A stretch of 64,000 nt of DNA from an uncultured Phycisphaerales bacterium (lineage in GTDB: Bacteria > Planctomycetota > Phycisphaerae > Sedimentisphaerales > Anaerobacaceae), in the NCBI GenBank assembly GCA_963718665.1, contig OY970359.1:2176001-2240000 (forward strand), written 5' to 3'. The position numbers were made by a program, and so were the translations under genes. Every line of letters begins with the position of its first letter. Positions within the stretch are counted from its first letter, which is position 1. The notes beneath the pieces are model-generated. The model was not told the origin of the DNA. It saw only the letters and a list, made by a program, of their open reading frames with translations, and ran no database searches. Shown piece after piece: positions 14,881 to 31,587 of this stretch.

Positions 14881-14902
14881 ATCTGTTTTGCCAAAGGCAA
14901 AA

Positions 14903-14992
14903 CGGAGAGGCCGGGATTCGAACCCGGGGAACGGGTTTACCCCGTTCGACGGTTTAGCAAACCGTTACCTTCAGCCACTCGGTCACCTCTCC
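14903..14992 (-). tRNA. tRNA-Ser(GCT)
   Basis: GGAGAGG acceptor stem, anticodon arm ACGGT-TTGCTAA-ACCGT, long variable arm, GGTTCGAATCC T-loop; CCA is not encoded. Confidence 0.96.
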
Positions 14993-15005
14993 GAGACAGC
15001 AAATT

Positions 15006-15414: not shown

Positions 15415-15831
15415 ATGAATAATCGAACCTTAAAAATGTATGTTTTTTATTGCTCAAACAGTATCGAGCCGGAACAAATGGCCGGGGGCATCAGCAAACT
15501 GGATGGGGTTACAGTCAAGACGATAAGTTTGCCGTGTTCCGGGAAAATTGACATCCCATATTTGGTAAAAGCGTTTGAAACCGGCGCGGATGGTGCTGTA
15601 ATCGTTACCTGCAAACAAAATGAGTGTCAGCACCTGGAAGGGAATTTACGGGCCAATAAACGAGCCGAGGCCGTCGAGTCGCTGCTGGAAGAGATTGGAA
15701 TGGGTAAAGGGCGAATGGCGGTAATTGTGTTGAAGGAAGGCGGCGTCGAACAGGCCCTTGGCGAAATCAGGGATTTTATTGACAGGGTAAGAAATTTACC
15801 TCAGCCCCAAAAGAGCGCTACGCACGTATAA
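15415..15831 (+). CDS. mvhD: MvhD/FlpD-like [2Fe-2S] subunit (divergent copy)
   Basis: LPCSGKID, AFETGADG, CKQNECQHLEGN. Confidence 0.8.
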   Translation: MNNRTLKMYVFYCSNSIEPEQMAGGISKLDGVTVKTISLPCSGKIDIPYLVKAFETGADGAVIVTCKQNECQHLEGNLRANKRAEAVESLLEEIGMGKGRMAVIVLKEGGVEQALGEIRDFIDRVRNLPQPQKSATHV

Positions 15832-15850
15832 GAAGGAGAAGATAAGTTGT

Positions 15851-16756
15851 ATGAAAATCGACAGTAAACTCGCGAATACAATAGCGAAGGGGAATTTTAT
15901 AGTCACCGCGGAGATTTTGCCCGGTGCAGGCGGAGACGGTTCAGCAGCCGAAGCAGCATTGAAGGCGCTGGGCAAGGGGCTTGTGGCGATAAACGTGGCG
16001 GACAACTGCCATAATATAGGTATGTCTTCCATTGCGGCATCGGTCGCGGTGCTCAAATCAGGCGCCGAGCCGATTTGCCAGATTGTTACGCGAGACAGGA
16101 ATCGTATTGCGTTGCAATCCGATTTGTTAGGGGCGGCGTATTTAGGAATAAAGAACGTGCTTTGCCTGTCCGGTTATCATCAGACGCTGTCGGCGTGTCC
16201 GGAATCGGCAAACGTTTACGATATCGATTCCACCCAGTTCATAGAAATGGCGACGGATATGTCCGAGAAGGGCGTTCTTGCCGACGGCTCAAAGATTGAA
16301 GGGCAATTTTCAATGCTCATCGGGGCGGTTGCCAACCCGTTCCTGAAGCCGGTGGAATTAAATATGCTAAGGATGCAAAAGAAAGTCGAAGCCGGCGCAA
16401 GATTTATTCAGACCAGCGCCGTATTCGATATTGAGACATTTAGCCAGTGGTTAAACGCGGCGATAAGCGATGGAATCACCGCCAAGGCCGCAATTTTAGG
16501 CGGTGTTTTGCCTTTGGATTGTGCTGCTGAAGCGGAAAGATTACGGAATACATATACGGATTATTCAATTCCGGACAGTGTGATTGAGCGGCTCAAAAAA
16601 GCCGGCAACGAAGCGGCACAGAAGAAAGAAGGATTGAATATCTGCATCGAGACAATCGGGAAGCTTAAAAAAATGAAAGGCCTCAGAGGTATCCATATAT
16701 ATTGCGGCTGCAAAGGAAAAGTGTCGCCGGAAGTTGTCGCAGCGGCCTTGTCATAA
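15851..16756 (+). CDS. metF: MetF-family (methylene-THF reductase-like) flavoprotein with substituted active-site residues
   Basis: VTAE, TRDRNRIALQSDLLGA, NVYDIDS and KKVEAGA are present, but SGYH replaces SGDH and QTS replaces QTQ. Confidence 0.8.
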   Translation: MKIDSKLANTIAKGNFIVTAEILPGAGGDGSAAEAALKALGKGLVAINVADNCHNIGMSSIAASVAVLKSGAEPICQIVTRDRNRIALQSDLLGAAYLGIKNVLCLSGYHQTLSACPESANVYDIDSTQFIEMATDMSEKGVLADGSKIEGQFSMLIGAVANPFLKPVELNMLRMQKKVEAGARFIQTSAVFDIETFSQWLNAAISDGITAKAAILGGVLPLDCAAEAERLRNTYTDYSIPDSVIERLKKAGNEAAQKKEGLNICIETIGKLKKMKGLRGIHIYCGCKGKVSPEVVAAALS

Positions 16757-16768
16757 CGGGAATCGAAT

Positions 16769-18187
16769 ATGCCTGAAAAATATCACATTAAAACACAACC
16801 TGTGCCGCCCATAAGCCCGCGAATCGGCAAATACGGAATGGTCGATTGGCGGGAAGATTGCGCACGATGTCATAACTGCGTCAAAAAGGCCTGCGTTTAC
16901 GACCGTTACAGGCAGGAAGCGGATTATATTCGCAATCTCAGTGACGTGAACGCCCTGTTCTTCGATTGTATGGGATGTTTTTCGTGCGTCCAGGACTGCA
17001 CAAAGGGCCTTTTGTGTATGTCCATCAATCCCGAATACCAGAAAATGGGAAACAGCTACTGGACTCCCGATATTATCAAAACTACCTGGCTTCAGGCGGA
17101 GACGGCGAAGATTCCGGTTTCCGGCGCGGGTTATCGCGGGCCGTTTTCGGGCAAAGGATTCGATTCGATGTGGACGGACATGTCCGAAATCGTTCGCCCC
17201 ACACGCGACGGGATACACGGACGTGAATACATCAGCACCTCGGTCGATATCGGAAGGAAACTGCCTTATCTCGCTTTCGGTTCGACAAAGCTCACCGCAG
17301 GTAACGGTAACAAGACCGGCGCAAACGCTTCGCCGTTAGTTTCGATTCCGATGCCGATGATAATAGATATGACCTCGCCTGTGCATACTTTGCCGCAGCT
17401 TAATTCGGTTATTGCTCAGACGGCTGTAAACACCGACATAATAGCGATTATTGATTTGCGTCAGTGGCAGGGAAATGACAAACAGCTCAAGAACATAGCT
17501 TTTTATCTTGCTGATGGTCAGGATATCCCGAAAGACACCCTTAAGAAAACCCGGCTGGTGGAAATAGCCGACAGCGGCAAGGTGATAGAACGCATCAAAG
17601 AAATAAAAAAGATACATCCGGGGATAGTCATTGCAATAAGAGTTGAGTTGACGGCGGCAGGAGTCGAGCGTGCGATAAAGCTCGCTGAATCCAAAGAAGT
17701 TGAAGTAATACATATCGTGGCGGACGCGAATGGCAATGAGATTGGCGCAAGCAAGCCGCGATTCATAAAGGATATGACTCGCCAGATTCACACGACCCTG
17801 ATAGAAAAAGGATGCAGGGATGAGATTACGCTTATGGCCGGGGGCGGGATAGCGCTGCCGGAGCATATGGCGAAAGAGATTATATGCGGCGCGGACCTGA
17901 TAACCATCAATCTGCCGCTTCTTATATCGCTTGAATGTCATCTGTGTAATAGCTGTAAGCCGGGGATGATATGTCCGGCCAAGCTGGAAAAAATTGATAT
18001 TAATTACGGCGTCGGCCGAATGACCAATCTTATCGCTGCCTGGCATGACCAGTTGGTAGAGGTTATGGGCGCGATGGGAATGCGTGAGGTTCGTCGTCTT
18101 AGGGGCGACGTCGGCCGCGCGATGTTCTTCGAGAATCTTGAGGAGGAAACCTTTGGCAAGTTTTTCGGTTCCAGAAAAAACAATTAA
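16769..18187 (+). CDS. Glutamate synthase FMN-barrel-related subunit with N-terminal 2[4Fe-4S]; active site degenerate
   Basis: CARCHNC and CMGCFSC; GFDSMWTDMSEIVRPTRDGIHGRE; GGGI...GAD; CHLCNSC; no QGAKPG motif. Confidence 0.75.
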   Translation: MPEKYHIKTQPVPPISPRIGKYGMVDWREDCARCHNCVKKACVYDRYRQEADYIRNLSDVNALFFDCMGCFSCVQDCTKGLLCMSINPEYQKMGNSYWTPDIIKTTWLQAETAKIPVSGAGYRGPFSGKGFDSMWTDMSEIVRPTRDGIHGREYISTSVDIGRKLPYLAFGSTKLTAGNGNKTGANASPLVSIPMPMIIDMTSPVHTLPQLNSVIAQTAVNTDIIAIIDLRQWQGNDKQLKNIAFYLADGQDIPKDTLKKTRLVEIADSGKVIERIKEIKKIHPGIVIAIRVELTAAGVERAIKLAESKEVEVIHIVADANGNEIGASKPRFIKDMTRQIHTTLIEKGCRDEITLMAGGGIALPEHMAKEIICGADLITINLPLLISLECHLCNSCKPGMICPAKLEKIDINYGVGRMTNLIAAWHDQLVEVMGAMGMREVRRLRGDVGRAMFFENLEEETFGKFFGSRKNN

Positions 18188-19733
18188 AGATATCCTTCCT
18201 GAGAATACGCTCAAGACGCTTGTGCCGCAGGAAGAGGTGACGCGTGTCGTTAAGACGGCGCCGTCGCGCTATCGCAACGAGATTGCGAAGTTCATTGTCC
18301 ATCGCAACCTGAATTGCAAACGATGCGGTAAATGTGCCGAGGTCTGCCAGTACGGAGTTCACGTTTTAAAACCCGGCTACAAGTATTTTGCTGAGCCGAA
18401 GAACCATTTGTGTATTGGCCCATCCTGTGAAAAGACCGGCAATTTCTGCGTAGCGAAGTGTCCGCAGAAGGCATTACAACTCAAAGAAAACCCGCTGTTT
18501 AAGGCGCTGGGCGATTATCGCTGGCCCGGAGATTTAATTTTAGCGACGTGGAAAATGGCTGAAACAGGCGACGTCCCGCCTGCGGAATATGGTTACGAAT
18601 ACGAGTGCGGCAATTCAGGCGGCGGATTTGACCGACTCAGGTTCAAATTTCCCGATAAACCCCCGGTAAGAATCGACGCCGACAAGATAGACACAAGCAT
18701 ATCGCTCAATAAACGCGGCGATGGTAGGCCCGAAATCAAAATTGACGTCCCTTGGTACGGCGGCGGTATGTCATTCGGATCGGTCAGTAACGTAACCCAG
18801 TTATCAAAAGCCAGGGCCGCAAAGGCCTGGAACACCTTCACCTGCACGGGCGAAGGCGGATATATGGAGCGGATGAGGCCTTATGACGACCACGTGATTA
18901 CGCAGGTCGCAACGGGGCTTTTCGGCGTGCGTGAGGAGACGATTCAGCGTGTGCCGATAGTGGAATTCAAATATGCCCAGGGCGCAAAACCGGGTCTGGG
19001 CGGCCACCTGTTAGGCGACAAGAACACCCCGGCTGTGGCAAAGATGCGTGAGGCGGTTGTTGGTATATCGTTGTTTTCGCCTTTCCCGTTCCACAGCGTT
19101 TATTCCATCGAAGACCATCAAAAGCACCTTGACTGGATAAAGCATGTTAACAAGAGGGCTTTAATATCAACGAAGGTATCGACGCCGACGGATGTCGATA
19201 TGGTCGCGGTCGGAAGCTACTCGGCAGGGACCCATATCGTCCACATAGACGGCGGCTACGGCGGAACCGGCGCAGCGCCTGATATAGCGAAAAAGAATAT
19301 CGCGATGCCTATCGAATACGCTATCGGAAGGGTCCACAAGTTCCTGGCCGACGAGGGCGTTCGTGACAAAGTAACGCTTATCGCCAGCGGCGGAATACGC
19401 TCGGCGCACGACGTGGCCAAGGCCATTGCCCTCGGTGCTGACGGGGTCGTAATAGGGACAGTTGAATTAGTGGCTCTTGGATGTGTCCGGTGCAGCAGAT
19501 GCGAAAGCGGAAGGGGCTGTCCGCGCGGTATCGCTACAACCGACCCTGAGCTGGCGGCGAAAATGAATATCGATTGGGGTACACAGCGGATTATCAATCT
19601 CTATAACGCCTGGCGAAAAGTGCTTGTCGGAATACTTCAGCGTTTTGGTATGAAAAGCGTGACTGAATTACGCGGACGTACCGACTTGTTAATGCATCTT
19701 GATTACACCAATGATATGGGAGTCGAGAAATGA
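18153..19733 (+). CDS. Glutamate synthase FMN-binding catalytic subunit (GltB2/GlxD-like) with ferredoxin domain
   Basis: GMSFGS, CTGEGG, QVATGLFG, AQGAKPGLGGHL, DGGYGGTG, SGGIR, CVRCSRC...CP. Likely TTG start at 18153 after GAGGAGG. Confidence 0.88.
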   Translation: MASFSVPEKTIKDILPENTLKTLVPQEEVTRVVKTAPSRYRNEIAKFIVHRNLNCKRCGKCAEVCQYGVHVLKPGYKYFAEPKNHLCIGPSCEKTGNFCVAKCPQKALQLKENPLFKALGDYRWPGDLILATWKMAETGDVPPAEYGYEYECGNSGGGFDRLRFKFPDKPPVRIDADKIDTSISLNKRGDGRPEIKIDVPWYGGGMSFGSVSNVTQLSKARAAKAWNTFTCTGEGGYMERMRPYDDHVITQVATGLFGVREETIQRVPIVEFKYAQGAKPGLGGHLLGDKNTPAVAKMREAVVGISLFSPFPFHSVYSIEDHQKHLDWIKHVNKRALISTKVSTPTDVDMVAVGSYSAGTHIVHIDGGYGGTGAAPDIAKKNIAMPIEYAIGRVHKFLADEGVRDKVTLIASGGIRSAHDVAKAIALGADGVVIGTVELVALGCVRCSRCESGRGCPRGIATTDPELAAKMNIDWGTQRIINLYNAWRKVLVGILQRFGMKSVTELRGRTDLLMHLDYTNDMGVEK

Positions 19734-22390
19734 ACAATGAAATCATAAAACAACTTGCATATTCGAGAAAGCAATTAGCCAAAAAGCTTAACTACTCCTC
19801 GCAAATAAGGAAAGAAGCCGAAGAGGGCGGCTGTGGCGTCGTCGGTTTTTGCTGCAGTGAGCCGGTGCCGGGCAAGCATATTTATGAGCCATCCAGGCAG
19901 ATGCACAATCGCGGAAACGGCAAAGGCGGCGGCATTGCCGCGGTAGGATTTGTGCCGGAACAGCTTGGCGTCAGCCGGGAGGTTTTAGACAACCATTATA
20001 TGCTTCACGTCGCTTTCCTCGATGATAAGGCCCAGCCGGAAATAGAAAAACAGTTTATCATGCCTAATTTCGATATTGCAAAATCGACCCAGCTCGATAA
20101 GGTCGATGACTGGAAGACAGTGCCCGGGCTGGAAGTTAAGCCGCCTGATGTTTGCCGATATTTTGTTCGGGTAAAACCGAAGGTGCTTGATGCCTTCATC
20201 GCTAAAAATAACCTGCAAGCTCTTGACCGCAGCGAAGCGGAAGACGAATTTATCAATCAGAATAGCTTCAGCTTGAATCAGAAGTACTACGCGTCCTTAG
20301 GTGAGAAGAGGGCCTTTGTGCTCTCGCACGGCCACGATATTATGATTCTCAAGGTCGTGGGTTTCGCCGAAGCGATTGTAAAGTATTATAAAATCGAAGA
20401 CCTTTGTGCCCACGAGTGGATTGCCCATCAGCGTTTCCCCACCAAGGGCCGCGTCTGGCATCCGGGCGGGGCGCATCCTTTCGCCGCTATCGATATGGCG
20501 CTGGTGCACAACGGCGACTTTGCCAATTACCATTCCGTAACCGAATATCTCAAGCAGCGGAATATCTATCCGCAGTTCCTTACCGATACGGAGGTATCCG
20601 CGCTTTTATTCGATTTGCTCAGCAGGACGTATCACTATCCGCTCGAATATATTATTGAGGCGCTTGCCCCGACCACCGAGCTGGATTTTGACCGGCTTGA
20701 CGCAGAAAAACAAAAAATTTACCGCGACATTCAGGCGACCCATATTCACGGCTCACCTGACGGCCCGTGGTTTTTCATTATCGCACGCAACATCGCCCGC
20801 GAGAAAAAATTTCAGCTTATGGGCATAACCGATACCGCGATGCTTCGGCCTCAGGTGTTCGCGTTCTGCGACGGCGAGGTCCAGGTAGGTCTGATTTGCT
20901 CGGAAAAACAGGCCATCGACGCCACGCTGCATAGTTTGTCCAAAGACGACAAAAGGATATGCCCGGTGGCGGATAAATACTGGAATGCCCGCGGAGGCAG
21001 TTACACCGACGGCGGGTCGTTCATATTTAACCTGTCTAAAAACACCCAGGGCAAAATGCGGATAACCTGCCAGGACAAATTCGGCAGGACCGTGCCTATG
21101 CCCAAACAAACAGAAAGTTGCGATTTCTCACAGGAGCCGTCTCTTGTATCTGAGGATGAAGAAAAAATACAGACGCTCATCAGCGAGCGGTTCGTGTCCG
21201 GCAATAGTATGGCGATTTTCGAGACGATTCGAGACGTTGTGCATGAATGGACGTTCGATGAGTTTCGTTTTGCCTGCCGGCAGATTGTAAACCAGACCAA
21301 AGACCCTCATAAAGCAAATCTCGCGATTGAGGTCCTGACGCTGCTTAATGACCGCAGGTATTCAACCAGCTCGAAGAAGCGAAGCCATATCCTTCACATT
21401 GTCCGCAGCGAATTGAACGAGCTGTTCTGGAATATTCCCAATATAGGCGTGAAGGATTCTTATGATGGGAATCATCGCCTCATTGATTTTGGGACGCGAG
21501 GCAATCTCAGGGGACCACAGGCCAATGAAACAACCCTTGTAATCGATGCCGCTAATTTTGCTCCCGAAGGAGACGATTGTGACGCGGCGCTTTTAGTTGA
21601 CGCGTATATTAAGGGCTGGCGGCATTTCATCAGCTTCAATTGTATAGGTCAGCGATTCATTGGATGCGGCCTCGGCCCGGATACCGACGATGTTACGATA
21701 GATGTTTACGGAAGCAGCGGCGATTATCTTGCCTCAGGCATCGACGGGCTGACCATCAGCGTGCACGGCAATGCCCAAGACCAGGTGGGTCAAATCACAA
21801 AAAGAGGTAAACTTGTAATCCACGGCGACGTGGGCCAGACCTTTATGTATGGCGCAAAAGGCGCAAGCGTTTATGTGCTTGGTAACGCCGCTGGAAGACC
21901 ACTTATCAACTCCGTCGGCAGACCCAAGGTGGTAATAAACGGAACCTGCCTTGACTTTTTAGCCGAGTCGTTTATGGCGGGCGACCCGCATAACGGCGGC
22001 GGCTTTGTTATCTTAAACGGCGTCAAATTCGATGATGACGGCAAATTAGTAGCGCTCCAGCAGCCGTATCCAGGCAGCAACATATTCTCCCTTGCTTCGG
22101 GCGGGGCGATTTTTGTCCGCGACCCGAACAGGACACTGGTTGACCAGCAGTTAAACGGCGGCTTCTTCGCCAAAGTAACCGACGAGGACTGGGAGCTGAT
22201 ACTGCCTTACCTGAAAGAAAACGAACAGCTTTTCGGAATAACAATAGAGCAGCTTTTGACCGTGAACAACGAGCGGCGCGAGCCAACAGAGGTTTACCGC
22301 AAGGTTGTTCCCGCCAACGCCGCGAAAGTTGCCTCGGAAGATACGGATGACGTTGAAGAGGCCTCCGAAGAGGAATTAGCCGCTAAATAG
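19730..22390 (+). CDS. Glutamate synthase class-II glutamine amidotransferase plus GXGXG domain subunit (GltB1+GltB3-like)
   Basis: Propeptide followed by CGVVG (Ntn nucleophile), HNRG, AHQRFPT, AHPF, HNGD, TDTE; C-terminal GXGXG repeats. Confidence 0.88.
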   Translation: MNNEIIKQLAYSRKQLAKKLNYSSQIRKEAEEGGCGVVGFCCSEPVPGKHIYEPSRQMHNRGNGKGGGIAAVGFVPEQLGVSREVLDNHYMLHVAFLDDKAQPEIEKQFIMPNFDIAKSTQLDKVDDWKTVPGLEVKPPDVCRYFVRVKPKVLDAFIAKNNLQALDRSEAEDEFINQNSFSLNQKYYASLGEKRAFVLSHGHDIMILKVVGFAEAIVKYYKIEDLCAHEWIAHQRFPTKGRVWHPGGAHPFAAIDMALVHNGDFANYHSVTEYLKQRNIYPQFLTDTEVSALLFDLLSRTYHYPLEYIIEALAPTTELDFDRLDAEKQKIYRDIQATHIHGSPDGPWFFIIARNIAREKKFQLMGITDTAMLRPQVFAFCDGEVQVGLICSEKQAIDATLHSLSKDDKRICPVADKYWNARGGSYTDGGSFIFNLSKNTQGKMRITCQDKFGRTVPMPKQTESCDFSQEPSLVSEDEEKIQTLISERFVSGNSMAIFETIRDVVHEWTFDEFRFACRQIVNQTKDPHKANLAIEVLTLLNDRRYSTSSKKRSHILHIVRSELNELFWNIPNIGVKDSYDGNHRLIDFGTRGNLRGPQANETTLVIDAANFAPEGDDCDAALLVDAYIKGWRHFISFNCIGQRFIGCGLGPDTDDVTIDVYGSSGDYLASGIDGLTISVHGNAQDQVGQITKRGKLVIHGDVGQTFMYGAKGASVYVLGNAAGRPLINSVGRPKVVINGTCLDFLAESFMAGDPHNGGGFVILNGVKFDDDGKLVALQQPYPGSNIFSLASGGAIFVRDPNRTLVDQQLNGGFFAKVTDEDWELILPYLKENEQLFGITIEQLLTVNNERREPTEVYRKVVPANAAKVASEDTDDVEEASEEELAAK

Positions 22391-22405
22391 CGAAAGGTAA
22401 TTACG

Positions 22406-22972
22406 GTGATAACAATCAAAAAAACCAAAGCAGGCGAAGCATTGAAAGACGCCGTCGAGAAAATTTCCGGCGTTGACCTGAGCGTTTGTCTTCAATGCAG
22501 GAAATGCTCCAGCGGATGCCCCGTCGGCAAACTTACAAAGTCCCGGCCCTCGGAGATTATGCGCCGGCTGCATTTGAACGCGGGCAACGAGCTGCTGGAA
22601 AGCGACATTCTCTGGATGTGCGTTTCCTGCGAGACGTGTTCGACCCGATGCCCGATGGGTATTGATGTCGCCGGGGTGATGGACGCTTTGCGAAAGCTGG
22701 CATTATCGAGGGGAGCATCGAAACAGGAAGGTAACGTGCCTTTGTTTAACAAGGCATTTTTGAAAACGGTCGAGGTATTCGGCCGGACTTATGAAATGGC
22801 GATGATAGCCGCTTACAAGTTAGGCAGCGGCAAATTGATGAACGATACGGAAAAGTTCCCGACGATGCTCAAAAAAGGCAAAATCTCGCTGTTGCCTTCG
22901 TTTGGCGGGGACAGGAAAACGGTGAAACGCATATTCAAAAAAACAAAGCAAAATAAAGGGGCCGGAATATGA
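22406..22972 (+). CDS. hdrC: Heterodisulfide reductase subunit C-like
   Basis: CLQCRKCSSGCP and WMCVSCETCSTRCP. Confidence 0.9.
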   Translation: MITIKKTKAGEALKDAVEKISGVDLSVCLQCRKCSSGCPVGKLTKSRPSEIMRRLHLNAGNELLESDILWMCVSCETCSTRCPMGIDVAGVMDALRKLALSRGASKQEGNVPLFNKAFLKTVEVFGRTYEMAMIAAYKLGSGKLMNDTEKFPTMLKKGKISLLPSFGGDRKTVKRIFKKTKQNKGAGI

Positions 22973-23847
22973 GATACGCCTACTACCCCGGATGTTCCGC
23001 TGAATCAACGGCCCGCGATATGCACCAGTCAACTTTGGCAGTAGCTGCAGCACTGGGAATCGAAATGATTGAGCCGAAGGGCTGGACTTGCTGCGGCGCT
23101 ACCGCCGGCCACCAGACCGACCGCATGTTGGCAGCGGCATTACCTGCCGCCAATCTGGTCAAGATTAAGGATATGGGGCTTGACTGCGTCGTGAATTGCG
23201 CGGCCTGTTATAACAGGATGAAAGTAGCGAATCACGAAATCGTGACCGAATCTAAAATCCGAAGTGACGTCAGCGACGCGATTGGCCGGGATTACGACGG
23301 CTCAGTTAAAATCAGGCATTTTATTGAGGTCCTGCTCGAAGACGTCGGCTTGGAAAAAATCAGTAGCGCAATCAAACATCCGCTCAAAGGCCTGAAGGTC
23401 GCTTGTTATTATGGGTGTTTGCTTGTTCGTCCGCCTAAGGTCGTTAATTTTGACGACCCGGAGAATCCGAAGTCACTCGATAAGCTGGTTAAAGCAGCAG
23501 GCGGCGAAGCAATCGAGTGGCCATACAAGGTCGAATGCTGCGGCGGGGGATTGTCGCTTTCGAGGACAGACGTGGTGGTTAATCTGACGGATTCGATTCT
23601 TGGAATGGCCAAGAGTTCCGGCGCGGATTGTATTGCGGTAAGCTGCCCGATGTGCCAGGTGAATCTCGATTTGCGGCAGCAGGACATTAAAAAAGAAACC
23701 GGCAGGGACTATCAAATACCTGTCGTGTATATTACGCAGCTTCTGGGGCTTGGTCTTGGCATCAGCTCAAAGAAACTCGGATTCAATAAGCTAATGGTTC
23801 CTGCTTCAAATGTTCTGGAGAAGGTGGAAGTGAGCGGCAATGGGTAA
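22969..23847 (+). CDS. hdrB: Heterodisulfide reductase subunit B-like (two CCG domains)
   Basis: YYPGC, WTCCGA, CAAC, YYGC, ECCGG, CPMC. Confidence 0.92.
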   Translation: MRYAYYPGCSAESTARDMHQSTLAVAAALGIEMIEPKGWTCCGATAGHQTDRMLAAALPAANLVKIKDMGLDCVVNCAACYNRMKVANHEIVTESKIRSDVSDAIGRDYDGSVKIRHFIEVLLEDVGLEKISSAIKHPLKGLKVACYYGCLLVRPPKVVNFDDPENPKSLDKLVKAAGGEAIEWPYKVECCGGGLSLSRTDVVVNLTDSILGMAKSSGADCIAVSCPMCQVNLDLRQQDIKKETGRDYQIPVVYITQLLGLGLGISSKKLGFNKLMVPASNVLEKVEVSGNG

Positions 23848-26800
23848 ATACGACGATAAAAAAATTGGCGCGGTACTTGTGCAGGGCGGCGGTATTGCCG
23901 GCGTTCAGGCGTCGCTCGATTTGGCCAACAGCGGCTTTAAGGTTTACTTAGTCGAGCGCGACGCCGCGATAGGCGGTATGATGGCCCATCTGGACAAGAC
24001 ATTCCCGACGGGCGATTGCGCGACGTGCATTGTTTCGCCAAAGCTCGTTGAATGCGCACGAAATTTGAATATCAAGATAATGACGCTCTCGGAGCTGGTT
24101 GACCTTGAAGGCGAACCGGGTAATTTCAAGGCAACCGTCAAACGCCATCCGCGATACGTTGATGAAGACAAATGCACCGGCTGCAGCGAATGCACGCAGG
24201 TTTGCCCGGTGGATGTGCCGGACGAATTTAACAGGTGTCTGGGGACAAGAAAGGGCATCGCGAAACTTTACGCACAGGCGACCCCCAATATATTCGGCAT
24301 TTTGAAAAACGGCCACTCGCCCTGCAAGATGGCGTGCCCGGCGAAGGTAAACGTCCAGGGTTACGTCCAGCTCATAAAGAAGAAAGAATACGTCAAGGCG
24401 GTCAATCTTATCCGCCAGAGAAACCCGCTTTCAGCAATATGCGGAAGGGTTTGCACGCATCCCTGTGAAGCCGAATGTACGCGAGGTAAGGCCGATGACC
24501 CAATCGCCATACGGCTGCTGAAAAGGTTCGCGTCGGATAAAGAAATGGAAATGCTCGAAGCGGGCCAGATTGCCCTACCCGAAGAAAAGAAACCTTCTGC
24601 TGACGCGAAAAAAGTCGCCATAATCGGCGCAGGTCCTGCCGGACTTACCGCTGCAAGCGACCTTGCCGACGCGGGCTTCGCGGTTACGGTATATGAATCG
24701 CAAAGCAAGGCGGGCGGTATGCTTCGATGGGGCATCCCCGAATATCGGCTGCCCAAGAAGGTGCTCGACCACGAAATAGAAATTATTCGCCGAAAGGGCG
24801 TTACTTTTGTTTATAACTGTGTTGTCGGAAAAGACATTACTATCCAGAAACTGCGCAACGATAATGAGGCGGTTTTCATCGCCGCCGGTGCACATAAGAG
24901 CCGCAAGCTCGGTATTCCGGGCGAGCAAATCAACGGCGTTATCCACGGCGTCGAATTTCTCAGGGACGCCGGCTCGGTCAATAAGCCCAAGGTGAAAAAT
25001 AAAGTCATAGTCATCGGCGGCGGCAACGTCGCGGTTGACGTCGCGCGGACCGCGCTTCGCCTCGGCGCAAAACAGGTCGAAATGGTTTGCCTTGAAGGCG
25101 CAAATGAAATGCCCGCCTACAAGGAGGAAATCGAAGCGACTCTCGCCGAGGGTATCAGAATTCGCAATGGCTGGGGACCCAAACGCATCACGGGCAACGG
25201 TTCGATTACAGGAATAGAATTCAAGCGCTGCACAAGGGTCTTCGATGACCAGAAGCGTTTCAGACCCCAATTTAACGAAAACGAACTTATAACGGTTGAC
25301 GCGGACCAGATTATTATTGCCATAGGCCAGATGACCGATGAGCAGTTTGTCGGTCACATTGGAGTGGCAAGTGAACGAGGACTTTTCAAGGTTGACCCGA
25401 TAACCGGTCAAACTTCAGTAGAAGGCGTTTTTGCCGGCGGCGATAATGCCTCAGGCCCAGCGGCTGTTATCGATGCTGTCGCGGCGGGCAAACGGGTCGC
25501 CGAATCCATCGAGCGATTCCTGACCGGCAAGGAAATGCTTGTTAATCGTTTCGAGGAAAATCTCAAACCCCTTTCCGAAGATTTGCTTCCCGACACGGAG
25601 GACGTGGAGAAAAAAGCCCGCGTTCATCCCAAAGAATTAGCGCCGGCGAAACGGCTGCTGAACTTCGAAGAGGTCGAAAAAGGTCTCACCGAGGCCCAGG
25701 CCATCGCGGAAGCCGAAAGATGCCTGAATTGCGCCCTGTGTTCCGAATGCAATCAGTGCGTCGAGGTCTGTGAGCAGCACGCTATCGACCACGCTATGAA
25801 AGAGCAGATAGTCAAACTGGAAGTCGGCTCGGTCCTGCTTACCCCCGGCTTTGAGGAGTTCGACGCGACCCGAAAAGGCGAATATGGCTACGGGCGATAT
25901 TCAAACGTCGTTACAAGCGTTCAATTCGAGCGAATGCTTTCAGCGGCAGGCCCGTTCGAGGGACATCTGATTCGTCTTTCGGACGGCAAGCCCGCCAGAC
26001 GTATCGCGTGGATTCAATGCGTCGGCTCACGCGATTCAGAATGCGGCAACGATTACTGCTCCTCAATTTGCTGTATGATGGCAACCAAACAGGCACTTGT
26101 TTCGGGTGACCACGTCGATGGTTTAGACGCGACCATCTTTTATATGGATATCCGCGCGTTCGGCAAGGATTTCGACCAGTATTACGAGCGTGCCAAAGCG
26201 CAGAAAAACATACACTACATCAAGAGCATTCCGTCGCGTGTAATTCAATTACCCGGCAGCAACGACCTTCGCTTGAATTACTACGACCAGAGCAATGATA
26301 TTCAGCACAAGGACTTTGACTTGGTTGTGCTTTCTGTGGGAATGGAGCCGCCCGCTTCTATGGCGGAATTTGCTTCCCGTCTTGATATAAAGCTCAATGA
26401 TTTTGGCTTCTGCAAGACCGACCGATTGTCCCCGTTGTCAACCTCCATACCGGGCGTCTTCGTCGGCGGGGCGTTCCAGGAACCCAAAGACATCCCGGAA
26501 ACCGTTACGCAGGCCAGTGCCGCCGCCTCTATGGCAATGGAATTGCTTGCGCCGGTGCGCAATACCCTTATTACCAAAAAGAGCTATCCCAGTGAGCACG
26601 ATGTTACCGACGAAGACCCGCGTATAGGTGTGTTTGTATGTCACTGCGGTATGAATATCGCTTCGGTGGTGGACGTAGAACAGGTTGTTAAGAATATCGA
26701 GAATATGCCCGACGTGATTTACGCTTCTCATACGATGTTTACCTGCTCCGATACGAGCTTGTCGAACATCAAGGATATGATACGCGAGCATCGGCTCAAT

Positions 26801-28336
26801 CGAATAGTGGTTGCCTCCTGCACGCCGCGAACGCACGAGCCGTTGTTCCGCGAGACGCTGCGTGAAGCGGGCCTCAATCCGTATTTGTTCGAGATGGCCA
26901 ACATTCGTGACCAGTGTTCCTGGGTACATTCGGCTGTACCTCAATCGGCTACCGAAAAAGCCACCGACCTGGTGAAAATGGCAATCAGCAGGTCGCGTTT
27001 TCTTTCGCCTCTCGAAGGCGGCACGCTGGCCGTTGACCAGACGGGCCTTGTCATTGGCGGCGGACTCAGCGGTATGACTGCCGCACTGTCGCTGGCTAAC
27101 CAGGGATTCAAGGTGCACCTGATAGAAAAGGCCGAGCGTCTTGGCGGAACACTTCAGGATATTTATCACACATTCGAGCACGATGATATCGCGGGCTTTA
27201 CCAGCGCCCTAATAAAGCAGGTTGAAAAGCATCCTAACATAAAACTTTACCTGGGCACAGAAATCACAAGTATTGCGGGTCATATTGGCAAATTCAAAAT
27301 CACTCTTGCCAAAAACGGTTCGGAATCCGAAGTCACGGGCGGCACGATAATCGTCGCCACCGGCGCACGAAAGGCCCAGACAACCGAATATATGTATGGG
27401 ACAAAAGGCGTCCTGACGCAGGTCGAATTGGAAAAACAACTGCACGATAAGGCGTATCCTGCAAAGGGCCAGAACGTCGTGATGATTCAGTGTGTCGGCT
27501 CACGCAACGAAACGCGTCCCTATTGTAGCCGAATCTGCTGCTCGATGGCAATCAAAAACGCGATTGAAATCAAAAAGCGAGACCCGAACGCGAATGTCTA
27601 TGTCCTTTACAGGGACGTCAGGACTTATGGCTTCAGGGAAACGTATTTCAAGCAGGCACGCGAAGCAGGCGTCGTATTTATCCGCTATACGCCTGAAGCG
27701 GCGCCGGTAGTAAGTCAGAACAATGGTCTTGTAGTAACTGTTAACAGTCCCGACCTGCCTGAGCCAATCAGTATCGAGGCGGATAATGTTGTGCTCAGCA
27801 CTGGTGTTGAGACCGACAGGGAAAACAACAAGCGTATCTCGGATATGCTCAAGGTGCCGCTTAACGCCGACGGGTTCTATGTCGAGGCACATATGAAACT
27901 GCGCCCCGTGGATTTCACCACCGAAGGCATCTTCCTCTGCGGGCTTGCGCATTCGCCGAAATTTATCGATGAGAATATCTCACAGGCCCGTGCTGCTGCG
28001 GCAAGGGCTGCAACGGTTCTTTCCAAAACTCTGCTCGACGTCAGCGCTCAGGTTTCGTATGTTGACCAGCAGAAGTGTATATCCTGTATGACTTGTGTTA
28101 CCGTCTGCCCGTATTCAGCTCCTTTCTGCAACAAGGACGGCAAAGGGCAAATCGAGGCCGCGAAATGTATGGGCTGCGGAATATGCGTTTCGGAATGTCC
28201 CGCCAGAGCCATACAACTGCACCATTTCGAGACAGACCAGTTCAACGTAATGATTAAGCAGTTGTTCGCCGGCGGCAACGGTGAAATATTCGCGGGAACA
28301 TCATCAAAGGCAAAAGAGTTAACGGAAAAAGTGTAA
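23840..28336 (+). CDS. hdrA: Large HdrA-like (HdrL-type) flavoprotein with an inserted GltD-like NAD(P)H oxidoreductase module
   Basis: GGGIAG...LDKTFPTGDCATC; inserted CKMACP, CGRVCTHPCE, GAGPAG and GGGNVA motifs; two QCVGSR...YCSxICC HdrA cores; C-terminal ferredoxin. Confidence 0.9.
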   Translation: MGKYDDKKIGAVLVQGGGIAGVQASLDLANSGFKVYLVERDAAIGGMMAHLDKTFPTGDCATCIVSPKLVECARNLNIKIMTLSELVDLEGEPGNFKATVKRHPRYVDEDKCTGCSECTQVCPVDVPDEFNRCLGTRKGIAKLYAQATPNIFGILKNGHSPCKMACPAKVNVQGYVQLIKKKEYVKAVNLIRQRNPLSAICGRVCTHPCEAECTRGKADDPIAIRLLKRFASDKEMEMLEAGQIALPEEKKPSADAKKVAIIGAGPAGLTAASDLADAGFAVTVYESQSKAGGMLRWGIPEYRLPKKVLDHEIEIIRRKGVTFVYNCVVGKDITIQKLRNDNEAVFIAAGAHKSRKLGIPGEQINGVIHGVEFLRDAGSVNKPKVKNKVIVIGGGNVAVDVARTALRLGAKQVEMVCLEGANEMPAYKEEIEATLAEGIRIRNGWGPKRITGNGSITGIEFKRCTRVFDDQKRFRPQFNENELITVDADQIIIAIGQMTDEQFVGHIGVASERGLFKVDPITGQTSVEGVFAGGDNASGPAAVIDAVAAGKRVAESIERFLTGKEMLVNRFEENLKPLSEDLLPDTEDVEKKARVHPKELAPAKRLLNFEEVEKGLTEAQAIAEAERCLNCALCSECNQCVEVCEQHAIDHAMKEQIVKLEVGSVLLTPGFEEFDATRKGEYGYGRYSNVVTSVQFERMLSAAGPFEGHLIRLSDGKPARRIAWIQCVGSRDSECGNDYCSSICCMMATKQALVSGDHVDGLDATIFYMDIRAFGKDFDQYYERAKAQKNIHYIKSIPSRVIQLPGSNDLRLNYYDQSNDIQHKDFDLVVLSVGMEPPASMAEFASRLDIKLNDFGFCKTDRLSPLSTSIPGVFVGGAFQEPKDIPETVTQASAAASMAMELLAPVRNTLITKKSYPSEHDVTDEDPRIGVFVCHCGMNIASVVDVEQVVKNIENMPDVIYASHTMFTCSDTSLSNIKDMIREHRLNRIVVASCTPRTHEPLFRETLREAGLNPYLFEMANIRDQCSWVHSAVPQSATEKATDLVKMAISRSRFLSPLEGGTLAVDQTGLVIGGGLSGMTAALSLANQGFKVHLIEKAERLGGTLQDIYHTFEHDDIAGFTSALIKQVEKHPNIKLYLGTEITSIAGHIGKFKITLAKNGSESEVTGGTIIVATGARKAQTTEYMYGTKGVLTQVELEKQLHDKAYPAKGQNVVMIQCVGSRNETRPYCSRICCSMAIKNAIEIKKRDPNANVYVLYRDVRTYGFRETYFKQAREAGVVFIRYTPEAAPVVSQNNGLVVTVNSPDLPEPISIEADNVVLSTGVETDRENNKRISDMLKVPLNADGFYVEAHMKLRPVDFTTEGIFLCGLAHSPKFIDENISQARAAAARAATVLSKTLLDVSAQVSYVDQQKCISCMTCVTVCPYSAPFCNKDGKGQIEAAKCMGCGICVSECPARAIQLHHFETDQFNVMIKQLFAGGNGEIFAGTSSKAKELTEKV

Positions 28337-28339
28337 CCT

Positions 28340-28801
28340 ATGAAACAGGAAAATTTTGAACCTAAAATACTCGCCTTCTGCTGCCACTATTGTGCGTATT
28401 CGTCGGCGGATTTGGCGGGGTCTATGCGTATCCAGTATCCGCCCAACGTGCGAATAATCCGCACGCCCTGCACGGGCCGGCTCGAAACCGAATACTTTAT
28501 GAAAGCCCTCGAAAACGGCGCCGACGGCGTGCTTATCGCCGGTTGTCTCGAAGGCGGCTGCCATTTCGTCGAGGGAAACCTCTACGCGAAACGCCGGGTA
28601 AATTACATAAGAGAAATGCTGGAAGAAATAGGCATCGAAAAAGAACGTCTTTGTATGGTAAACGTGTCCGCCGCGATGGGAAGACCTTTGGCGGAAAATA
28701 TTACGGATATGGTTGAAACCGTTCGCAAACTGGGTCCAAGCCCTATAAAACAATCTTCCTTCGCTAAAGCTACGGAGGATAAAATTGGTTCATCTAAATA
28801 G
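28340..28801 (+). CDS. mvhD: MvhD [2Fe-2S] subunit
   Basis: FCCHYCAYSSAD, PCTGR, GCLEGGCHF. Confidence 0.93.
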   Translation: MKQENFEPKILAFCCHYCAYSSADLAGSMRIQYPPNVRIIRTPCTGRLETEYFMKALENGADGVLIAGCLEGGCHFVEGNLYAKRRVNYIREMLEEIGIEKERLCMVNVSAAMGRPLAENITDMVETVRKLGPSPIKQSSFAKATEDKIGSSK

Positions 28802-28813
28802 GAGTGTCGCTTA

Positions 28814-29482
28814 ATGATAGTTGCTCAAAGAAAAAATATACCTGACCTGCTGGCAATCGTAAAAAGCCATAAAAAGCTCCTCGTGCTGGGCTGTGGCACC
28901 TGTGTTACCGTGTGCCTTGCCGGCGGACAGCGTGAGGTAAGCATCATCGCCTCTGCGTTACGAATGTCGGCGAAATTAAAAGGGCTTCCACTTGAAGTCG
29001 AGGAATTGACCATAGAGCGTCAGTGCGACAACGTCTTCCTCGAACAGGCGGCCGACGCCATAAAACGAAATGACGCTGTTCTTTCGCTCGGATGCGGTGC
29101 CGGCGTTCAGGCCCTCGCCGAACGTTATACCGATAAGCCCGTTTACGCGGGGCTCGATACGGCGTTCATCGGCATACTTGAGGAAAGAGGCGTCTGGACG
29201 GAAAAATGCGCTGCCTGCGGCGCATGCGTCCTTCACGAATACGGCGGCATCTGCCCCGTTACCCGCTGTGCCAAACACATGCTCAACGGCCCGTGCAGCG
29301 GCTCACGCGAAGACCGCTGTGAAGTCAATCCCGAACGCCAATGTGCCTGGCAGCTTATATACAAGCGTCTAAAGGACATCGGCCAGCTCGACCGGCTCAA
29401 AAAAATCAAGCCGCCCAAAAACTGGAACACAAGTCAATCCGGCGGTTACCGTACCATAATTCGTGAAGACCACAGAGTTTGA
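28814..29482 (+). CDS. metV: MetV (MTHFR C-terminal-domain Fe-S/Zn subunit)
   Basis: GCGTCVTVC, ERQCD, CAACGAC, CPVTRCAKHMLNGPC, CAW. Confidence 0.9.
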   Translation: MIVAQRKNIPDLLAIVKSHKKLLVLGCGTCVTVCLAGGQREVSIIASALRMSAKLKGLPLEVEELTIERQCDNVFLEQAADAIKRNDAVLSLGCGAGVQALAERYTDKPVYAGLDTAFIGILEERGVWTEKCAACGACVLHEYGGICPVTRCAKHMLNGPCSGSREDRCEVNPERQCAWQLIYKRLKDIGQLDRLKKIKPPKNWNTSQSGGYRTIIREDHRV

Positions 29483-29546: not shown

Positions 29547-31445
29547 TCAGAATAGACCTGCTGTAGTAGCACCGCCCCCGGGCGCAATATAGTCCATTAG
29601 CCAGTTATCGGCGAGGACATACAGGTCTTTTTCGTCGATTACGCCGTCGCCCGGTGTCGATGAGATATCGCAATTGGCGTCCCAGTTGGTATCGCCTGAA
29701 TGGCTGCGCCAGGCCTTTGCCAGTATGGCGAAGTCCTTGAAATCGACAAACCCGTCATAATTGAGGTCTGCCCAGCCAGGCGCGCTTGTAGTAAGCTCAA
29801 TTCCATTTCCCGTGCCGAGATTGCGTGTGTACTGCTTGTCGGTTGCGTTATTCCAGTGCTCGTGAACGCCCAAACTTGCGGTCAAACCCCCGTTGTGGTT
29901 TGGGTCATAGGTAGTCCCCGACGGGGGATTGGGAATTAAAGCGGCTTCGTGCAGATAGTCATGAGCACCGGATTTGTGCGGGTATCCGTTCATATTTGGG
30001 TCGTCAGGATTTGCGGCATTCCATTCATTGTACATAAAATCATAAGCGACCGAATCGGCTGCTATCTGGTCCATAGAAAGAAAAATGCTGGATGGCCAGT
30101 TACCGTTGAACGGGGTCATATTCCATTTGATCGGGTGGGAATCCCAGCTTCGGCCGGCATATAGGCCGTCGATAAGCGCAAGCAGCGTTTTGCCGCCTAA
30201 ACGGGGATGACCCATCAAATCGACAATCGCCCTGTAGTGTCCCATCCCAGGCGTTTCTGTCGCTCTCGTCCAGTGTGTGCTGTAATAGCCGCTGTCGGTG
30301 GGGTTTCGGATCAGAGAGCCATAGTGATTTTTACCGCAGACGGTGATACCGCCGTCGTTGTGGCTTTTGAGTGTAGGAAAGTCTATAAAATAGGCCGCCT
30401 GAGAAAAGTGTGTTGGGATGTAGTCCTGATTTGTGACTCCGCTAAAGTGGGAAGAAGTTGGGTCGCTCCAGTAGAATGGAGAGTTTGTGTCGTATGCGAC
30501 ATTGGTTCTTCCGGTAAAAGAATATCCGGGCATTGTGAGGTAAACGACACCCGGGCAATTGGGGCCGACCATATTATACCAGTAGTTGGGCATTTCTTTA
30601 CCGGGGTCACCTATGCTTATATTGTTTGGACTGACTCCGGCGACATTAGTCAGTTGTTTTAAAAGGGCTATTGTGAGCTGAGGCGATTCGTCTATTTCGC
30701 TGAGGAGAGACGCTGGTTTATTCCCATCAGTAGGATTGGAATACATCAACGTAAAGTTAATTTTTATAGCGATTTTTTCGCCCTGCGTATAGCCAACATT
30801 TCCCTTGCCGATTTGCTGGTTGAAGTTTCTGAATATTGCATCCCATGCGGCAGAGTCGGTACTTTTGCCAGTCAGTGAGCGAAGCGCCTTTGAGAGCATA
30901 TCATTGACAACTTGCTGATTGGTGCAGGTATTTGAATACCAGTAAGGTGGATTATTATTGCCGTCTGAGCCGGGCCAACTTGCGGCATTGGGGTCGTAAA
31001 TCCAGGCCACCCGGCCTGGGTGAACGCCCTTGCCGACTCCAATTGGGGCATTTGCGGGGTGCGGATCGTCAGCTCCATATGATATTTTCTGATCTGTGCT
31101 GCTCATTGCGGCCCAGATGAAGCCGACGCTGGCGACGATGCAGATTGCCGCCAGGACATAGCGTGCCCGCACAAGATGACGTTTTGCCTTATGAAATGCG
31201 ATGGTTGAGGCAGCCAGACCAACAAGCCAGACGATGAAGCCCGACGCGAGCGGAAACGCTACCCGCTGACAGGGATACGCCGCCCGCGATGGCTTGGGTA
31301 TCACGCGGATTAAAAACCAGATTAATGCAGCCAGACCCGTGAACGGGAACAGCCACCACGCCCACTTTTTGTTGTGAACCGGGTTGATTATTTTACCTGT
31401 TTTGGGACAAACACGCGGCTGGGCTTCTTTTTTTAAAAACGACAT
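29547..31445 (-). CDS. Membrane-anchored DUF362 protein with C-terminal dockerin/EF-hand-like domain
   Basis: VIPKPSRAAYPCQR, GVHPGRV, IAIKIN, LKSH, KNHYG, GVHEHWNN; DLNYDGFVDFKD repeat. Confidence 0.8.
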   Translation of the reverse strand: MSFLKKEAQPRVCPKTGKIINPVHNKKWAWWLFPFTGLAALIWFLIRVIPKPSRAAYPCQRVAFPLASGFIVWLVGLAASTIAFHKAKRHLVRARYVLAAICIVASVGFIWAAMSSTDQKISYGADDPHPANAPIGVGKGVHPGRVAWIYDPNAASWPGSDGNNNPPYWYSNTCTNQQVVNDMLSKALRSLTGKSTDSAAWDAIFRNFNQQIGKGNVGYTQGEKIAIKINFTLMYSNPTDGNKPASLLSEIDESPQLTIALLKQLTNVAGVSPNNISIGDPGKEMPNYWYNMVGPNCPGVVYLTMPGYSFTGRTNVAYDTNSPFYWSDPTSSHFSGVTNQDYIPTHFSQAAYFIDFPTLKSHNDGGITVCGKNHYGSLIRNPTDSGYYSTHWTRATETPGMGHYRAIVDLMGHPRLGGKTLLALIDGLYAGRSWDSHPIKWNMTPFNGNWPSSIFLSMDQIAADSVAYDFMYNEWNAANPDDPNMNGYPHKSGAHDYLHEAALIPNPPSGTTYDPNHNGGLTASLGVHEHWNNATDKQYTRNLGTGNGIELTTSAPGWADLNYDGFVDFKDFAILAKAWRSHSGDTNWDANCDISSTPGDGVIDEKDLYVLADNWLMDYIAPGGGATTAGLF

Positions 31446-31587
31446 CACCGACTCTCCTTTTTAGGGTGCAGATTTAAGAATGGTTGTATCAATTAGTTTA
31501 CCAAGAATAAGGGGCTGAATCAATGGATTTATGGCCTTTCTATGTTGGGTGTTGGAAATTGGACATTATTCCGTCCTCTGTTCTCCG

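Follow-up and report, generated by a model that had tools for sequence, protein, structure and literature searches.

A split glutamate synthase possibly joined to a Moorella-type HdrCBA-MvhD-MetV(F) module in an uncultured Phycisphaerales bacterium

Glutamate synthases have been described with NAD(P)H (through GltD), ferredoxin or F420 as electron donors. The closest described counterpart of the redox module considered here is the MetFV-HdrABC-MvhD complex of Moorella, a methylene-tetrahydrofolate (methylene-THF) reductase whose second redox partner is given as unknown (PMC5861303; papers with PMC numbers are cited throughout from excerpts of their text). In the full-text literature searched, outside which subscription papers and supplements mostly lie, no glutamate synthase linked to MvhD, MetVF or Hdr was found described. 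Here we analyse a ten-gene block within a 64,000-nucleotide stretch of DNA, referred to as the window, from an uncultured Phycisphaerales bacterium (contig OY970359.1, positions 2,176,001 to 2,240,000). The block combines both kinds of genes, and its glutamate synthase architecture is apparently undescribed so far; the preliminary description of this DNA likewise knew of no characterised precedent. We favour, at a probability of roughly 0.55, the reading that a Moorella-type HdrCBA-MvhD-MetV(F) module is joined to the glutamate synthase and supplies its electrons.

The block comprises ten open reading frames (ORFs) on the + strand between 15415 and 29482. Their Pfam and NCBIfam domains and junction gaps agree with the preliminary description, which had reported ten co-oriented, overlapping or nearly adjacent genes in the following order (the boundary tRNA is listed last):

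15415–15831, + strand: MvhD', divergent MvhD-fold [2Fe-2S] protein (Pfam FlpD)
15851–16756, + strand: MetF', MTHFR-fold protein (Pfam MTHFR)
16769–18187, + strand: GltB2a, dead TIM barrel (Pfam weak Glu_synthase plus Fe-S)
18153–19733, + strand (ORF also readable from 18084): GltB2b, flavin mononucleotide (FMN) synthase subunit (Pfam Glu_synthase 6e-90 plus Fe-S)
19730–22390, + strand: GltB1+3, class II glutamine amidotransferase fused to a GXGXG beta-helix (Pfam GATase_6 plus GXGXG)
22406–22972, + strand: HdrC with two [4Fe-4S] clusters (Pfam 4Fe-4S dicluster)
22969–23847, + strand: HdrB, two CCG domains with ten conserved Cys
23840–28336, + strand: HdrA of the Moorella/HdrL type, two HdrA halves with an inserted GltD-like NAD(P)H module
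28340–28801, + strand: MvhD, canonical HdrA-associated [2Fe-2S] subunit (Pfam FlpD)
28814–29482, + strand: MetV, Cys-rich Fe-S subunit (Pfam DUF5981/MetV)
14902–14993, - strand: tRNA-Ser(GCT), the upstream boundary, outside the operon

Except at the GltB2a/GltB2b junction, neighbouring genes are separated by -8 to +19 nucleotides. Compared with six loci of the same genus, all ten genes are under purifying selection, with ratios of nonsynonymous to synonymous substitution (dN/dS) of 0.03–0.16; MetV is the most conserved (0.028) and MetF' stands at 0.093. Given these low ratios and conservation across phyla, the arrangement is far beyond chance. The G+C content of the block is about that of its flanks, and close homologues carry the label Sedimentisphaerales.

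The glt genes are linked to the hdr and met genes well beyond this genome, in line with the preliminary description. A scan of species genomes with GltB1+3 returned at least 584 relatives, and linkage was counted in the best 80 loci, a set that is skewed to the window's own clade and in which related genomes are not independent. All ten genes occur together in 25 of these 80, from Planctomycetota, Verrucomicrobiota, Spirochaetota, Bacteroidota/Ignavibacteria, deltaproteobacterial lineages, Chloroflexota and Acidobacteriota. Six further loci carry a circular permutation, gltB1+3-hdrCBA-mvhD-metV-mvhD'-metF'-gltB2a; gltB2b lies outside the fetched flank of the permuted loci but comes next in L114 and L115. 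An hdr gene follows gltB1+3 immediately in 38 of the 66 informative best-hit loci, the other 14 being too short. Within the host genus all 23 genomes are concordant: GltB1+3 and HdrB are both present in the same 14 and both absent from the same 9 (several of them more than 90% complete), a joint pattern partly forced by physical linkage and drawn from kin that are not independent. Pairwise distances of the glt, hdr and met proteins correlate across 36 loci (rho 0.88–0.95), the trees broadly agree, and the window proteins are about 80% identical to Verrucomicrobiota copies; the Hdr-linked form therefore appears to have moved between phyla as one unit.

By every sequence test the block encodes a glutamine-dependent glutamate synthase, and the split enzyme of the preliminary description is upheld by intact amidotransferase, FMN synthase and GXGXG sites. 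In GltB2b, the synthase motifs GEGG, Q-V-A-[ST]-G, GAKPG, the HxxYSIED loop and GGTGA do not vary among 141 homologues, and neither do Arg322 just before that loop and the gating Glu343; alignment to the solved GltB structures 7mfm and 2vdc shows an intact active site. The subunit also bears a ferredoxin domain and a 4-Cys cluster motif. GltB1+3 keeps the nucleophile Cys35, behind a propeptide, in 148 of 151 homologues and the HNGD motif in all 151; its Pfam GATase_6 score of 26.4 bits is slightly below the cut-off of 27, and GXGXG, at 54 bits, is above its own.

GltB2a is a full-length paralogue of GltB2b (24% identity over 484 residues). Two ferredoxin motifs lie at its N-terminus and a 4-Cys motif at its C-terminus. 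None of its 135 homologues has the GAKPG/GEGG motif, and the Cys motifs are kept in 119–122 of them. A fold search with the model of its barrel (predicted local distance difference test, pLDDT, 78.7) returned generic barrels alone, IMPDH and lactate oxidase among them. In all 120 long homologues listed it is fused to GltB2b. GltB2a thus looks like a catalytically dead barrel that probably arose separately from the central domain of GltB; descent of that domain from GltB2a, or orthology between them, is not supported, the two failing to group in a quick tree. A 20-residue stretch at GltB2a residues 135–155 (window 17171–17233) is near-invariant in 56 homologues, where the subunit averages 54% identity, and is likely an interface, a tunnel element or a ligand site.

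The preliminary description had named an alternative: an N-methylglutamate synthase-like C1 enzyme of the GlxBCD/MgsABC type, passing methylamine carbon to folate through MetVF. The three domain types are indeed shared with a glx/mgs-type cluster of Paracoccus aminophilus, and a MetVF-like neighbour is present. But the Paracoccus FMN subunit, the single reference and one whose annotation comes from context and not from an assay, departs at TGEGG, QVATG and the HSVYSIED loop from the window, which at these sites agrees with canonical and archaeal-type GltB. It also falls outside the GltB2b clade (Shimodaira–Hasegawa-like approximate likelihood ratio 99, in a quick tree with one long-branched reference). 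Sarcosine-oxidase-like mgd genes were not seen among the neighbours scanned, and the folate site of MetF' is lost. We regard such an enzyme as extremely improbable. In the quick tree of FMN subunits, GltB2b forms a clade of its own, apart from canonical GltB, archaeal-type GltB2 and the glx/mgs-type reference; the comparison proposed in the preliminary description thus set the subunit apart, and neither the archaeal nor the GlxBCD/MgsABC grouping was borne out.

In the Hdr half of the block, the ten Cys of HdrB are kept in 35–36 of 36 loci, and those of MetV in 105–106 of 106 homologues. HdrA carries glutamate/lysine (E/K) bifurcation pairs, equivalent to E356/K409, in both halves (E697/K750 and E1198/K1239). 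Its GltD-like NAD(P)H module (residues ~157–625) is inserted inside the ferredoxin domain of the first half, and the second half has no ferredoxin domain. The nucleotide-binding loop of the insert is acidic in the window and YRR in some homologues, which we take to be NADH-like and NADPH-like, respectively. A GltD module in HdrA may block access of ferredoxin (PMC12054007). Ferredoxin reduction by HdrA is doubtful because the module splits the ferredoxin domain, so that of the electron-bifurcating HdrA put forward in the preliminary description the two E/K pairs stand and a free ferredoxin domain does not.

These features bear on the possibility that HdrA splits NADH electrons between glutamate synthesis and ferredoxin, the latter feeding a membrane hydrogenase. 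In favour are both E/K pairs and a calculated yield, from textbook potentials, of -14 to -33 kJ for every 2 NADH if ferredoxin lies at -500 to -400 mV, where methylene-THF as acceptor gives less (+12 to -8 kJ). The host has a group-4-like membrane NiFe hydrogenase operon (C1:12646-22690, subtype assigned by eye) and NfnAB-like genes, and retention of the operon beside canonical gltBD suggests an added benefit. FeFe hydrogenase and RnfC were not found in the host genome. Besides the split domain of the first half and its absence from the second, the excerpts give the low-potential acceptor of the Moorella complex as unknown (PMC5861303) and report no co-reduction of ferredoxin in Sporomusa ovata (PMC9430772). 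Bifurcation to ferredoxin is therefore unlikely in our estimation. As a side observation, a soluble NiFe hydrogenase operon (subtype by eye) lies behind a Rex-like regulator at C1:365051-370268 of the host.

MetF' departs from the methylene-THF reductase to which it is related. It keeps the catalytic Glu21 and has Tyr109 and Ser189 at the positions of the folate-anchoring Asp and Gln. The Gln183 equivalent was mapped directly on E. coli MetF and the Asp through the LRGD loop of human MTHFR, whose Asp we take to be equivalent to E. coli Asp120. In MTHFR, the roles of Glu28, Asp120 and Gln183 have been described, Asp and Gln anchoring the pterin (PMC9900621). Both residues are kept in 59 of 62 metF copies behind metV, and the Asp in only 4 of 40 behind mvhD' (two duplicate genomes included). 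With both anchors lost, MetF' is probably no longer a methylene-THF reductase, and a relay or scaffold role may be inferred. Since two further MetF-domain proteins of the host retain the Asp, and acetyl-CoA synthase was not found in its genome, the host does not appear to need MetF' for folate chemistry. The view of HdrCBA-MvhD-MetVF as a Moorella-type reductase complex accordingly holds for the gene set and the double HdrA with its insert, but the MetF component is degenerate. The host also encodes, at C1:1271427-1273886, an 819-residue protein whose MetF domain is accompanied by a MetV-like Cys cluster and a pterin-binding-like C-terminus, the last recognised by eye.

The two halves could also be separate machines that share a transcript, the MvhD'-core drawing on ferredoxin or another soluble carrier and HdrCBA-MvhD-MetV-MetF' working as an independent oxidoreductase, perhaps on a changed pterin or a non-folate substrate. 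Most sampled loci have the core without hdr, GltB2b has its own ferredoxin domain, MetF' retains Glu21 under purifying selection, some window-type loci keep the MetF Asp (L061, L071, L079, L092), and the predicted contact between MvhD' and GltB2a, described below, is weak. Against this, metF' lies between mvhD' and gltB2a with metV at the far end, an interleaving kept across seven phyla and through the permutation; loss of the folate anchors tracks the window layout; and no second genomic copy of HdrA or HdrB was found by tblastn. We consider separate machines somewhat unlikely.

In the favoured reading, in which the Hdr module supplies the synthase, glutamate synthesis would have replaced methylene-THF reduction as the terminal acceptor at the MvhD port. 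The GltD-like insert of HdrA would take electrons from NAD(P)H, and HdrB probably from a dithiol. Electrons would leave from MvhD through MetV and possibly the MetF' flavin to MvhD', then through the clusters of GltB2a and GltB2b to the FMN, which would reduce 2-iminoglutarate; the order of this relay is the least certain step. GltB2a would probably also fulfil the role of the canonical GltB central domain. Solved Hdr complexes use the ferredoxin domain as the low-potential port and HdrCB as the high-potential port. By analogy with that wiring, the layout would be of the confurcation type, NAD(P)H and dithiol feeding one acceptor without need for ferredoxin, and we favour it because the GltD insert occupies the low-potential port. 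Confurcation of a similar kind has been put forward both for HdrA/NfnB fusions of archaea (PMC9012536) and for S. ovata (PMC9430772).

Structure prediction offers weak support for one contact in this relay. The four [2Fe-2S] Cys of MvhD' (Cys13, Cys41, Cys66 and Cys71) are kept in 125–130 of 130 upstream copies, and the protein does not have the N-terminal motif that HdrA-adjacent MvhD proteins conserve. Its model (pLDDT 89.6) best matches the MvhD chains of 5odc, 8rvu and 7bkb. The MvhD'-GltB2a pair passes weakly: it scores 0.56 and the best of three controls 0.00, with runs agreeing in at least 56% of contacts and partner pLDDT of at least 77. In calibration, passes at or below 0.60 came from 18 of 157 solved complexes and from both passing mismatches (2 of 215), and they were more often wrong than right unless the contact was likely beforehand. 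Two database proteins, P0279 and P0284, join MvhD' to a truncated GltB2a and an unrelated tail; they are likely sequence errors and were not counted as fusions. In L033, L036 and P0271-P0277, MvhD' has an N-terminal extension of 150–180 residues that belongs to no known family.

Sampling of more distant loci shows that the constant unit is GltB2a, GltB2b and GltB1+3 plus MvhD', and that Hdr, which the preliminary description had taken as the scaffold, does not have this role in the synthase family. Of 140 informative loci (all loci minus three duplicates and 7 uninformative ones), 127 have an MvhD-like gene directly upstream of gltB2a, 8 a flavin adenine dinucleotide (FAD) oxidase and 5 neither. 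Genomes with GltB2a numbered 8 of 301 in Planctomycetota and, in an evenly drawn sample, 86 of 301 in Desulfobacterota, for which the loci of 80 of the 85 new hits were fetched. Upstream of the core these 80 have mvhD'-metV-metF (36), mvhD' alone (26, of which 7 have hdrA in the locus), mvhD'-metV (5), an FAD oxidase (4), the window type (3) or none of these (1), and 5 are truncated. The FAD enzyme is nearest to 2-hydroxy-acid dehydrogenases of the LctD/GlcD type and is fused to the entire core in P0145, P0163, P0195 and P0244. The core is accompanied by no gltD-type gene and has exchangeable modules in its place. Because the upstream layouts vary, the family can be viewed as a three-part glutamate synthase with exchangeable electron-input modules (Hdr, MetVF, LctD-like). 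One locus, L089, carries mvhD'-metV-metF-core and a complete hdrCBA-mvhD-metV-metF in tandem; it is a plausible intermediate, as loss of one metV and one metF would give the window order.

Several further loci show variant arrangements. The four fused proteins are single chains of 2500–3150 residues with more than one domain order, which combine an LctD/GlcD-like FAD enzyme, Fe-S domains, dead barrel, live barrel, amidotransferase and GXGXG. L143, L145, L146, L150 and L160 have mvhD'-metV immediately before the core and no metF, which suggests that MetV may serve the synthase without MetF. In L121, L128, L130 and L136 the core is followed by a 1020-residue double HdrA without the GltD insert, in which the second E/K site is not conserved, then by mvhD-metV-metF and an HdrC-like gene. 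Two glutamate synthase systems adjoin in L152 (G584), L013 (G128) and L088, the neighbour of the core being an archaeal-type five-gene cluster or canonical gltBD.

Glutamine plus 2-oxoglutarate going to glutamate has a potential of about -70 mV, and methylene-THF one of -200 mV. With this acceptor, textbook potentials give -49 kJ for NADH, -26 kJ for methyl-THF and -24 kJ for lactate, and a sink of about -70 mV would therefore explain partner modules with donors or arms too positive for NAD+ reduction. We raise, tentatively, the possibility of an overlooked and widespread family that uses the glutamine/2-oxoglutarate potential as a sink through an MvhD-type port. In this operon the synthase would form the terminal arm of an HdrA that bifurcates or confurcates on a flavin basis, and in sister operons it would be fed by methyl-THF (MetVF) or a 2-hydroxy acid (LctD-like).

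A number of observations weigh against an Hdr module as electron supply, in addition to the skew of the best-hit set and the physical linkage noted above. Long hdrA (more than 800 residues) is present in only 9 of the 80 Desulfobacterota loci and the window layout in only 3, and 19 have MvhD' and the core only. The core can probably use another donor, for example ferredoxin, because five loci have neither MvhD' nor the FAD enzyme upstream. Credible MvhD'-GltB2a or MetV/MetF-Glt fusions were not found among homologues, and DsrC was not found in the host genome (94.6% complete), in which no dithiol partner was identified. The host also has a separate canonical glnA-gltB-gltD cluster (C1:2022972-2035300, L196), and canonical gltB is present in 15 of 24 window-type genomes tested. 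The glnA-gltB-gltD cluster of the host is accompanied by amt and three PII-motif genes.

The wider nitrogen context depends on the lineage. Canonical GltB occurs in 5 of 86 Desulfobacterota genomes with the family versus 58 of 215 without, and in this phylum the family mostly replaces it. Eight deltaproteobacterial-group carriers tested have no canonical gltB, which other window-type hosts usually keep; going by this distribution, the operon would serve some hosts as their main enzyme and others as an addition for anoxic conditions. At least one of glnA, amt, glnE and nrpR accompanies 40 of the 71 sampled loci that have no long hdrA and none of the 9 that have one, an Hdr operon leaving less visible flank; carAB, purF and nadE are also frequent neighbours of the core. 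DVU1823-1821 of Desulfovibrio vulgaris are putative members of the GltB2a/GltB2b/GltB1+3 family. These genes belong to a predicted nitrogen regulon (PMC4641369). Acetyl-CoA synthase is present in 72 of 86 Desulfobacterota genomes with the family versus 127 of 215 without, in kin that are not independent; a Wood-Ljungdahl link drawn from these counts was set aside for that reason and for the absence of a hit in the host.

Hdr modules are reversible, and the operon might then run catabolically, oxidising glutamate to 2-oxoglutarate and ammonia with electrons passing to a disulfide through HdrB. A separate gltBD for the anabolic direction is common in window-type hosts, and nitrogen-assimilation neighbours are fewer among named loci with long hdrA (6 of 35). 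The invariant glutaminase site and Glu343, however, make sense only if glutamine drives synthesis; canonical GltB gives way to the family in Desulfobacterota; and a candidate glutamate dehydrogenase (by motif match only) is encoded in the host genome. The catabolic direction is accordingly very unlikely.

As to expression, the start of GltB2b is most likely TTG 18153, judged from its position behind a GAGGAGG ribosome site within the GltB2a gene, which gives a 35-nucleotide overlap and 526 residues. All 26 close homologues examined have a TTG or ATG in the gltB2b frame within the last 11–38 nucleotides of gltB2a, on which grounds a programmed frameshift or a non-standard start at this junction was rejected. 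Metatranscriptome contigs of relatives, at 80%, cover all ten genes (two sets sharing 0.05 of words, with no DNA control). They bridge gltB2a/gltB2b, gltB2b/gltB1+3, hdrC/hdrB and hdrA/mvhD, and none of those listed bridges gltB1+3/hdrC; the contigs themselves show no transcript. Promoter and terminator scans were both at shuffle level (10 sites versus 13.9 in shuffled sequence, and 23 versus 19.2). Sigma-54-like boxes were found upstream in 8 of 122 loci and NrpR-like ones in 2 of 122, and none in the window.

The block is bounded downstream by a convergent DUF362 gene (29547–31448, - strand). Elsewhere in the window, a GH5 cellulase-family protein is encoded upstream (12423–14576, - strand), and a 902-residue ORF at 34379–37087, PHP-domain-like and ATPase-like by eye, occupies a low-G+C stretch (39–41%) that is possibly a defence or mobile island.

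Were the wiring real, nitrogen assimilation would join the reactions served by HdrA-MvhD modules and be tied directly to anaerobic electron flow. The Moorella-type scaffold of the window would then carry an easily assayed terminal reaction, a handle on the question of the second partner in Moorella. Intact MetVF in the sister layout hints at one way in which anaerobes that oxidise acetyl-CoA could dispose of methyl-THF electrons. If the overlooked-sink proposal is true, nitrogen assimilation would be coupled directly to the Wood-Ljungdahl pathway's methyl branch and to Hdr bifurcation. GltB2a adds an independent instance of a dead barrel accompanying an active one, comparable with the GltB central domain.

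Among known systems, the MetFV-HdrABC-MvhD complex of Moorella thermoacetica and Sporomusa ovata has the same hdrC-hdrB-hdrA-mvhD-metV order. The Moorella HdrA is alike in its length of ~1500 residues, its two TrxR-like halves, its GltD insert and both E/K pairs, there E696/K750 and E1204/K1246 (PMC9430772). Unlike that complex, the window has metF before gltB2a rather than behind metV and without the folate-anchoring Asp and Gln, adds a second MvhD-like gene and three glutamate synthase genes, and belongs to a host in which acetyl-CoA synthase was not found. HdrL and type III HdrA proteins, as far as the excerpts describe them, are HdrA-GltD fusions that likewise hold the GltD module within HdrA, with mvhD following, but they stand beside dsr, fdh or mvhAG and not beside glutamate synthase (PMC2702500, PMC12054007).

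On the synthase side, GlxBCD/MgsABC has the same three domain families and differs in active-site motifs and tree position. Archaeal-type GltB1/GltB2/GltB3 (a Monoglobus example; three reference rows in all, none from a named archaeon) shares the split subunits, the ferredoxin domain of GltB2, the 4-Cys motif and GGHL in place of GGQL. The window proteins differ from it in identity (~35%), in forming a separate clade, in the fusion of GltB1 with GltB3, and in the extra dead barrel and MvhD'. Canonical GltB-GltD is alike in its N-terminal nucleophile (Ntn) amidotransferase, FMN barrel synthase motifs, GXGXG helix and GltD-like NAD(P)H module, and in canonical GltB, too, a dead barrel forms part of the lining of the ammonia tunnel (PMC8097209). 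Unlike canonical GltB-GltD, the window has three genes in another order, scoring 200 bits against NF008730 (cut-off 1047), with a 4-Cys cluster motif and ferredoxin domains, and its GltD-like module is buried in HdrA. Its dead barrel, unlike the canonical central domain, appears to be a separate duplication that keeps its Fe-S motifs and groups apart.

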